64,000 nucleotides of DNA. Source: Candidatus Fiminaster equi (GTDB lineage Bacteria > Bacillota_I > Bacilli_A > RFN20 > CAG-826). The stretch spans positions 6,137 through 70,136 of the forward strand of contig JAGHUR010000011.1 in NCBI GenBank assembly GCA_018064745.1. The letters run 5' to 3'. The notes under the pieces were generated by a model that saw only the letters and a program-made list of their open reading frames with translations, searched no databases and had not been told where the DNA came from. This document shows, in pieces, positions 4,923 to 5,361 of the stretch. Positions within the stretch are counted from its first letter, which is position 1, and every line of letters begins with the position of its first letter. Both the position numbers and the translations under genes were made by a program.

Positions 4923-5114
4923 AAATATGTTGGTTAGTAAATTATTGGAATTTTTTACATATATTAAAAATACCTGGGTAATACGTTAAATATGTTGTTT
5001 ATATATTATTAATATATGTAACGTATATCCCCCCTATTGTAAGCTATTAAACAGTATGATAAATTATGTTCGCCAATTTAAGAGATTGGATAGTTTAGAA
5101 GGAGGAACAAGCCC

Positions 5115-5237
5115 ATGACTAAATGTGTGGGAATTCACAGGCATTTAGTCGGAAAGGGGGTTTCCACTAATGGAGGCACTCCTGGTGCTATTTCTTGTTT
5201 TAGTAATGGTCAAGTTGCTTTTCAAGGAATAGCCTGA
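5115..5237 (+). CDS. candidate small protein (40 aa, Cys/Gly-containing) or sRNA with its own SD and terminator
   Basis: Perfect SD GAAGGAGG 9 nt before the ATG. ORF reads MTKCVGIHRHLVGKGVSTNGGTPGAISCFSNGQVAFQGIA*. Candidate promoter TTGTAA-17-TAAATT at about 5040-5070. Strong terminator at 5268-5296. Not in the ORF track, which uses a minimum length cut. Confidence 0.25.
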   Translation: MTKCVGIHRHLVGKGVSTNGGTPGAISCFSNGQVAFQGIA

Positions 5238-5267
5238 CTTGCTTGTGAATCCCAATAAACGAAGAAA

Positions 5268-5296
5268 AGAGACCGGCGGCAACCGGTCTCTTTTTA
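5268..5296. terminator. bidirectional rho-independent terminator (lysS on minus; small ORF/sRNA on plus)
   Basis: AGAGACCGG-cggcaa-CCGGTCTCT stem with T-runs on both strands. Flanked by direct repeats TGACTTGCTTGT (5237-5248 and 5306-5317). Confidence 0.65.
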
Positions 5297-5361
5297 GAAT
5301 TGCTTGACTTGCTTGTAATTCCTACTTATATGATACACTACTGAAATAAAATTTCAATATG

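Follow-up and report, generated by a model that had tools for sequence, protein, structure and literature searches.

The element considered in this report lies between lysS (5362-6897, minus strand) and rpsF (4531-4818, minus strand) in a 64-kb stretch of DNA, which is called the window below and whose numbering is used unless another locus is named. The RpsF protein of the window is identical to MBQ0008755.1 of Candidatus Fiminaster equi (uncultured, Bacilli incertae sedis), and the closest genomes are metagenome-assembled ones labelled “Bacilli”, “Bacillales” or “Erysipelotrichaceae bacterium”, with names that cite horse faeces, goat reticulum and sheep rumen. The gap between the two genes is 543 nt long (4819-5361) and contains an insert of roughly 400 bp (about 4955-5357); the rpsF-ssb-rpsR operon, all on the minus strand, is its divergent neighbour. 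The insert forms a predicted transcription unit, unannotated and self-contained, that comprises a promoter, a leader hairpin, a Shine-Dalgarno (SD) sequence and a terminator, as a first-pass annotation of this DNA had proposed, and its features exceed chance both in the fold of its RNA and in a repeat-flanked terminator that is nearly unique in our scan. The combination of predicted convergent promoters, a shared terminator, direct repeats, a structured peptide-encoding RNA and an RNA partner of about 70 nt leads us to read the locus as a new type I toxin-antitoxin (TA) family that is laid out like par and would act at a site like that of RatA/SR4, a reading which we consider probable, with appreciable room for doubt. 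The narrower claim, that this is a structured mRNA for a small peptide and that it co-evolves with an antisense partner, we hold with good confidence.

The plus-strand transcript (RNA I) would start from a predicted promoter at 5037-5065, with TTGTAA at 5037-5042, a 17-nt spacer and TAAATT at 5060-5065; TG at 5057-5058 gives it an extended -10, (TGA)TAAATT. The promoter scan does not list it because it scores 8/12, below the threshold of 9/12. It is conserved in all full-length homologs introduced below (the window, L001, L094, L002 and L090) and is deleted in L087. Downstream there is a leader hairpin at 5073-5089, described earlier as having 5 bp and showing 7 pairs in the minimum free energy (MFE) fold, which is conserved in all full-length homologs. 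It is followed by the first SD sequence (SD1), GAAGGAGG at 5098-5105 on the plus strand, 9 nt before the ATG at 5115. A bidirectional intrinsic terminator at 5265-5294 has a stem of 12-13 bp with A-run and T-run flanks; it is listed by the terminator scan on the minus strand, is followed by TTTTT on the plus strand, and was also detected in L001, L002 and L090. The first-pass annotation had named all four features, and all four are there. With its ends placed from the promoter and the terminator, the predicted RNA I spans 5072-5298 of the plus strand and is about 225 nt long.

The terminator is common to RNA I, to lysS and to a predicted minus-strand transcript (RNA II), for which a promoter was predicted at 5330-5357 (minus strand, TTGAAA-16-TATCAT, 10/12), beginning 5 nt past the lysS stop codon. 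Its counterpart in L001 is TTGATT-16-TATATT with a TG (9/12); in L002 (a TGG-TATATT -10) and in L090 (TATAAT with a 15-16-nt spacer) it was recognised by eye only, below the scan threshold. RNA II, with similarly placed ends, would cover 5250-5323 of the minus strand, about 70 nt, and consist of a 5' tail of 28 nt followed by the terminator hairpin; across the lineages the predicted length is 64-73 nt with a tail of 21-28 nt. The RNA II sequence is also carried in the 3' untranslated region (UTR) of the lysS mRNA, where the tail starts about 40 nt after the lysS stop codon.

The 12-bp direct repeat reported on either side of the terminator is confirmed, and it extends further than reported: the 12 nt are the core of a 26-nt repeat with 85% identity and a spacing of 70. 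Copy 1 (5227-5252, plus strand) covers the last codons and the stop of a small hydrophobic open reading frame (ORF) discussed below, together with its 3' UTR; the reverse complement of copy 2 (5297-5322, minus strand) is the 5' tail of RNA II. A scan for repeat-flanked terminators in the window and about 670 kb of related loci returned only the element, its homologs and one AT-rich low-complexity match.

An LysS-based scan of GTDB genomes found the lysS-rpsF synteny kept in the clade and the element solely in two loci, L001 and L002. Among ten RpsF relatives, checked together with the window RpsF, the element is present only in L087, L094, L090 and, truncated, in L092; in the other relatives the gap is empty or occupied by another gene. 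Five related loci (L001, L087, L094, L002 and L090) bear it at the same place upstream of rpsF, with flanks about 97-100% identical to those of the window and an element body about 50% identical. The window, L001, L002 and L094 are near-identical over the leader and promoter of rpsF, an AT-rich inverted repeat and the plus-strand promoter; from SD1 to the terminator the identity drops to about 50%, and the length stays at 168-172 nt.

The gap is a variable spot in the clade (loci L002-L024 and L088-L110). Most relatives, including contigs with an RpsF identical to that of L090, have a gap of 156-276 nt with an ordinary lysS terminator. A mechanosensitive-channel gene (PF00924) occupies it in L022, L088, L089 and L101-L110, a 712-aa ORF in L095, and small membrane-protein-like ORFs in L004 and L024; in L002 there is a 577-aa ORF plus the element, which stays with rpsF, not with lysS. 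Such patchy presence among relatives with identical or near-identical RpsF indicates that the element is accessory. In L087 (L087:2599-3000) a 135-nt deletion relative to L001, between short AATT-containing repeats, joins AAATTATT to GAAAAATTGG; it takes away the promoter of RNA I, the inverted repeat upstream and half of the leader hairpin, on its 5' side, and it retains the peptide ORF and the RNA II side. This is what the decay of a toxin gene would look like.

Which peptide the locus encodes had been answered by the first-pass annotation in favour of the 40-codon ORF at 5115-5237 (plus strand; ORF1), as a possible Cys/Gly-containing peptide. The open frame exists, and its SD1 and properly spaced ATG, which are the strength of this proposal, are conserved in all homologs. 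The start is conserved and the peptide is not: the same SD and ATG open onto unrelated sequences in the relatives (MVKRHGTPGRFDREGGSVNWSISPS, MAKIQRALRVLSQKGGFMLFLTWYC and MANRPMEPRWISKMNSLN), the lengths differ (window, 40 aa; L001, L094 and L002, 25 aa; L090, 18 aa), the aligned frame contains stops in L001, L087 and L090, and the mean pairwise BLOSUM62 score is 0.13 per site. The suggested check of ORF conservation thus went against this frame. The gene-position index holds no exact match of the 40-aa ORF. We consider a functional Cys/Gly-containing product of ORF1 very improbable.

A different frame, +1 relative to ORF1, has the properties expected of a coding sequence. In the window it is a hydrophobic ORF of 20 aa (5170-5232, plus strand; MEALLVLFLVLVMVKLLFKE and a stop), a putative membrane toxin, with an SD-like AAGGGGG (SD2, 5154-5160, plus strand) 9 nt upstream of its ATG at 5170; the same 9-nt spacing is found for AAGGAGG in L001, AAGGGGG in L094 and AAGGGAGG in L002. 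The homologous peptides are LEYLTILVLVLVALKLLYKD in L001, LEFLSVLVLILVVLKLLFKD in L094, IPYLVLLVVILVLVAMLVNN in L002 and one beginning IEYLVMLFLIMVVLTVYYKK in L090. The frame is open in all lineages, and its stop position is shared by four of the five and lies eight codons later in L090. All the peptides are hydrophobic (grand average of hydropathy, GRAVY, 1.6-2.5). The aligned first codon is ATG, TTG, CTG, CTG, ATT and ATT, each at most one mismatch from ATG, i.e., near-cognate.

The mean BLOSUM62 score is 1.59 per site in this frame against 0.13 and 0.51 in the other two. The differences counted by codon position (e.g., [14,3,13] and [9,2,12]) spare position 2, and among five non-redundant sequences the invariant columns are distributed over the codon positions as 3/13/2 (p = 0.002), 11 of the invariant columns being T at position 2. 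There is no such periodicity in the flanking RNA, where the invariant columns are 4/5/3 and 5/7/7. Between L001 and L087 the hydrophobic ORF differs by four synonymous codons and one non-synonymous codon (L-to-Q). We take this pattern as a signature of selection on the hydrophobic peptide; a small (<60 aa) hydrophobic ORF under selection is also what is expected of a type I TA locus. Judging from the substitutions, the conserved coding frame is the +1 frame with its 20-aa hydrophobic peptide, and not the 40-codon ORF. By analogy, ORF1 is possibly a non-conserved leader ORF that is translationally coupled to the peptide, like mok or ldrX; in L090 the stop of the upstream ORF overlaps the ATT start (ATTGA), which suggests such coupling.

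The plus-strand RNA is heavily structured. The fold of 5072-5300 has an MFE of -92.3 kcal/mol (z = -7.3), and 0/200 shuffled sequences did as well. The RNAalifold consensus contains 56 pairs, with 89.5% of the alignment cells paired; both partners are changed in 21/56 pairs, compared with 8.2±2.1 pairs in column shuffles (0/500 reaching the observed number) and just 3-6 when the partners are slid by 1-3 columns. The consensus helices are the 5' hairpin (helix 1), the P2 hairpin, a pairing of SD1 with the sequence after SD2, the P4 hairpin and the terminator. P2 (5117-5150, plus strand; helix 3) has 17-nt arms, and its base is the 9-bp inverted repeat pointed out earlier; 8/15 of its pairs are changed on both sides. 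P4 (5187-5233, plus strand; helix 4) lies inside the hydrophobic ORF, with 91% of the cells paired and 4 pairs changed on both sides. In the terminator (helix 6) 100% of the cells are paired and 6 pairs are compensatory.

Covariation of this strength would also be expected of a non-coding structured small RNA (sRNA), with or without an antisense partner, in which both ORFs were incidental and the hydrophobic frame was a by-product of U-rich helices. The non-canonical starts of this frame in three lineages and the absence of SD2 in L090 fit such an RNA as well. It does not explain, however, why the three-nucleotide periodicity is restricted to the ORF, or why the frame is open everywhere with a stop shared by four of five lineages and with changes that are synonymous or conservative; nor does the RNA match any Rfam family. 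We regard a purely non-coding RNA as improbable. The proposal of a dual-function sRNA came closer to what we find, the best fit being a pair of a type I toxin mRNA and an antitoxin RNA.

The direct repeats provide the link between the two predicted transcripts. Since the 26-nt sequence flanks the terminator on either side, the tail of RNA II is complementary to the stop codon and 3' UTR region of RNA I, and the terminator hairpins of the two RNAs are also complementary to each other. The repeat differs between lineages, yet the two copies match within each lineage, i.e., they have changed together: it is TGACTTGCTTGT in the window, TACGGCCGCCTTGAC and TACGACTGCCTTGAC in the two copies of L001, CAAACTGCCTTGAC in both copies of L094, CAACTAGCA..CTAAGTACCT in L002, and TCTGCCTTGGG and TCTACCTTGGG in L090. 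The predicted duplexes between a cognate RNA II tail and RNA I have energies of -22.9 to -33.3 kcal/mol, compared with -12.7 to -17.8 kcal/mol for non-cognate combinations (-20.5 and -26.9 for the sister pair L001/L094) and about -13 to -16 kcal/mol for shuffled tails, the z values of the real tails against the latter being -4.2 to -7.2. In every lineage the pairing site runs from the last codons of the hydrophobic ORF through its stop into the 3' UTR, the best site falling at about 150-180 of the about 189 nt of RNA I that precede its terminator. That the duplex is kept though both partners have changed argues for an RNA-RNA interaction maintained by selection.

The same observations bear on whether the locus is a functionless remnant, with the repeats as a scar of an insertion or of a terminator duplication and the ORFs and hairpins due to chance. 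The suggestion of an insertion remnant in the first-pass annotation was half right: presence and absence among close relatives is insertion-like, and the variable gap, with different inserts in different relatives, speaks for a history of this kind. The repeats are not an insertion scar, though, and supply the antisense complementarity; they co-vary across the lineages rather than decay, the helices are kept by compensatory changes, and the promoter elements are conserved. Absence of function is thus scarcely credible.

Copy 1 has a further partner within RNA I itself. According to the predicted folds, the copy 1 segment folds back in cis onto the translation-initiation region, the partners in the window being 5127-5166 (from the P2 apex to SD2) or 5101-5112. 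Both partners are conserved. The weaker is the stretch just past SD1 (P1 in the MFE fold of the window); the stronger one, from the P2 apex through SD2, has predicted energies of -26 to -33 kcal/mol in all lineages, and in L090 21/22 possible pairs of the helix are formed. Both SD1 and SD2 sit in predicted helices, and SD2 is buried in a hairpin of the MFE fold. This fold-back, together with the position of both SD sequences, implies that full-length RNA I would be poorly translatable. We also considered whether the RNA II tail mimics the internal partner of copy 1; the local alignment scores of cognate combinations are no better than those of non-cognate ones, and we therefore claim competing complementarity only, not mimicry.

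We presume that the system operates as follows. The promoter at 5037-5065 would produce the heavily folded RNA I of about 225 nt, which encodes the 20-residue hydrophobic peptide, presumably membrane-active; translation of ORF1 from the strong SD1 and its ATG probably opens the structure, as with mok or ldrX. RNA II, about 70 nt and with the same terminator end, would come from the convergent promoter at 5357-5330 and from read-through of lysS. Binding of RNA II would turn the 3' end of RNA I into a long duplex, and cleavage of this duplex by an enzyme of the RNase III type, as in txpA/RatA and bsrG/SR4, would remove the stop codon and the protective terminator, so that the peptide would not be made.

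The architecture could also be that of a locus whose 20-aa peptide is a benign small membrane protein, e.g., a regulator or an accessory subunit, with the antisense RNA tuning its level or even activating it. The evidence for the coding frame and for antisense pairing is just as compatible with such a peptide, RNA II is a competitor of the inhibitory fold-back helix, and the element is single-copy and chromosomal and adjoins core genes. Several traits are rather those of a type I toxin: the multi-layer sequestration of the start region and the weak or non-canonical start codons, the very fast turnover with co-evolution of the cognate RNA pair, and the patchy presence among near-identical strains with a natural promoter deletion. 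A benign peptide is, in our opinion, possible but not likely. It is also tempting to propose a three-partner RNA switch, in which the 3' UTR of the lysS mRNA acts as antitoxin or activator: the copy 1 fold-back would shut peptide initiation, only a complementary tail (of RNA II or of the lysS 3' UTR) would free it, and the pairing of the tail would either license or destroy RNA I. Such a switch, which we think rather doubtful, would tie a membrane-active 20-mer with the starts ATG, TTG, CTG or ATT to the transcription of the lysyl-tRNA synthetase gene.

The toxin-antitoxin reading can be compared with several known systems. The par-type loci have convergent promoters, a bidirectional terminator, direct repeats, a toxin RNA of about 200 nt and an antitoxin RNA of about 70 nt (PMC7472228; PMC3543317). 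The predicted layout and RNA sizes here are the same as in pAD1 Fst/RNA I-RNA II, par EF0409, fst-Sm/srSm and SprA1/SprA1AS. In particular, the shared bidirectional terminator and the oppositely transcribed direct repeats, which give a second, non-contiguous region of RNA-RNA complementarity, are found in both. Further likenesses are a hairpin at the 5' end and an SD sequence in intramolecular helices (analogous in function to 5'-UH/5'-SL, and predicted in our case), a small hydrophobic peptide whose C-terminal end is polar or charged, and a patchy distribution in short intergenic regions (PMC7472228; PMC3543317).

The differences from par are equally clear. The peptide has 20 aa, whereas par toxins have about 30-35 aa. 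The Fst/Ldr signature consists of a transmembrane helix with P/D/S/T-XXX-G(C), a Trp that is conserved and a C-terminal tail of high charge (PMC7472228); it is absent from MEALLVLFLVLVMVKLLFKE, LEYLTILVLVLVALKLLYKD, IPYLVLLVVILVLVAMLVNN and the others, which have neither a PXXXG-type motif nor a Trp at the end of the transmembrane segment and which end in merely 2-3 polar residues instead of a long, highly charged tail. In our element a single repeat pair directly flanks the terminator, so that RNA II meets the stop codon and 3' UTR of the toxin RNA; the repeats do not lie over the toxin initiation region, as they do in par. An upstream leader ORF with its own SD and ATG is present here, unlike in par. 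Examined by eye, the terminator loops CGGCAA (window), UUGCCC (L001), UUACCG (L094) and GUGCCA (L002) contain no YUNR; the RNA I loop of L090, UUAAAU, is the sole one with this motif. Not all par homologs carry the YUNR U-turn motif (PMC7472228).

As to the site of action, the closest likeness is with txpA/RatA and bsrG/SR4 of Bacillus subtilis, in which the antitoxin pairs with the toxin RNA's 3' end and the duplex is cleaved (by RNase III for txpA/RatA), SR4 also altering the structure around the SD sequence (PMC8167048). Their pairing is a long perfect cis-overlap, whereas in our case the perfect overlap is the terminator and the remainder comes from the repeat; the txpA and bsrG toxins are unrelated and longer (38-59 aa). 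The upstream overlapping ORF with a good SD, here ORF1, and the fold-back of the 3' part onto the initiation region, which keeps the full-length RNA inert, recall hok/mok/sok, ldrD/ldrX/rdlD and aapA1/IsoA1 (PMC8167048). The antisense RNAs of those systems bind the 5' leader and block the leader ORF, and not a 3' segment as here; they belong to Proteobacteria and Campylobacterota, and there is no sequence relationship. In its extremely short hydrophobic peptide the element resembles Ibs/Sib of E. coli, whose Ibs toxins have 18-19 aa and are almost wholly hydrophobic. The Sib RNAs, unlike RNA II, are fully overlapping cis-antisense RNAs, and the sequences and the host phylum are unrelated.

A number of points weigh against a type I TA system. 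No known toxin or antitoxin family in Rfam, Pfam or NCBIfam resembles the element. At Rfam gathering scores the whole window contains no type I toxin or antitoxin RNA and nothing but an SRP RNA elsewhere, and at E <= 10 the region 4800-5400 gives noise matches only, no credible family among them; this was the outcome of the Rfam check proposed in the first-pass annotation. Pfam and NCBIfam gave nothing at E <= 10 for the hydrophobic peptides and the 40-aa ORF. RatA (RF01776) was considered and rejected, since its match on the plus strand at 5253-5337 has 20.2 bits against a gathering score of 49 and E = 6.3, i.e., noise. With 20 aa the peptide is very short; at its aligned start L001 and L087 have the non-canonical CTG, and L002 and L090 the non-canonical ATT, and L090 has no SD2. 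The minus-strand promoter clears the scan threshold solely in the window and L001, so that RNA II could be a mere 3' UTR of the upstream gene. As RNA II pairs with the very segment that folds back onto the initiation region, activation instead of repression could be proposed on the predicted structure alone.

The phylogenetic depth is also limited. The element is known from six loci in all (five with a full RNA I), three of the six being close relatives, and they share a single chromosomal site within one narrow clade. Neither an nhmmer profile of six sequences nor the repeat-flanked-terminator scan detected a second copy in about 770 kb. A search of metagenome contigs with a conserved promoter 20-mer gave 6 matches, all by chance and in unrelated contexts, and a gapped pattern of the promoter -10 and the leader hairpin gave 0 matches in viral contigs.

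We believe that the observation is of interest nonetheless. Type I TA systems are hard to find, their toxins being tiny and their RNAs fast-evolving, and a few cultured model species have supplied most of the known families; this locus, from uncultured Bacilli of the horse and ruminant gut, was recognised by architecture and covariation alone. As a new family it would have a toxin among the shortest known (20 aa) and the repeat arrangement of par placed at the 3' end of the ORF. It presents a natural case of cognate RNA-RNA co-evolution, with four allelic specificities on nearly identical flanks, and it illustrates that a textbook ORF with an SD and an ATG can be the wrong reading frame. Annotation pipelines miss this gene pair. 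The kind of system is well known, and its distribution is apparently narrow.

An AT-rich 18-nt inverted repeat at 4955-5021 (arms TTACATATATTAAAAATA and TATTATTAATATATGTAA, 31-nt spacer, 94% complementary) stands 16 nt upstream of the -35 of RNA I, between the rpsF and RNA I promoters. It is confined to element-bearing loci, is perfect in L001, and has a matching change in both arms in L090. As an RNA hairpin its fold is unremarkable (z of -1.0 and -2.2), which makes a DNA-level, protein-binding site more likely; it is possibly an operator.

In two related loci (L001:5804-5831 and L002:7551-7578, locus plus strand, directed towards rpsF) there is a promoter-like TTTTCA-16-TATCAT that overlaps the -10 and leader region of RNA I on the opposite strand. 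The window, in which the hairpin loop is different, gave no such site.

The 5' leader of rpsF (4819-4890, minus strand) is highly conserved, with a hairpin CTGGCTGACATCTTCTGTCAGCAG beside the SD region, and is kept even in distant relatives of the clade. It has no Rfam match (4800-5400, E <= 10), and it is probably the S6:S18-binding autoregulatory leader of rpsF. The SRP RNA mentioned above is a bacterial small SRP RNA (RF00169, 66.8 bits) at 44348-44444.

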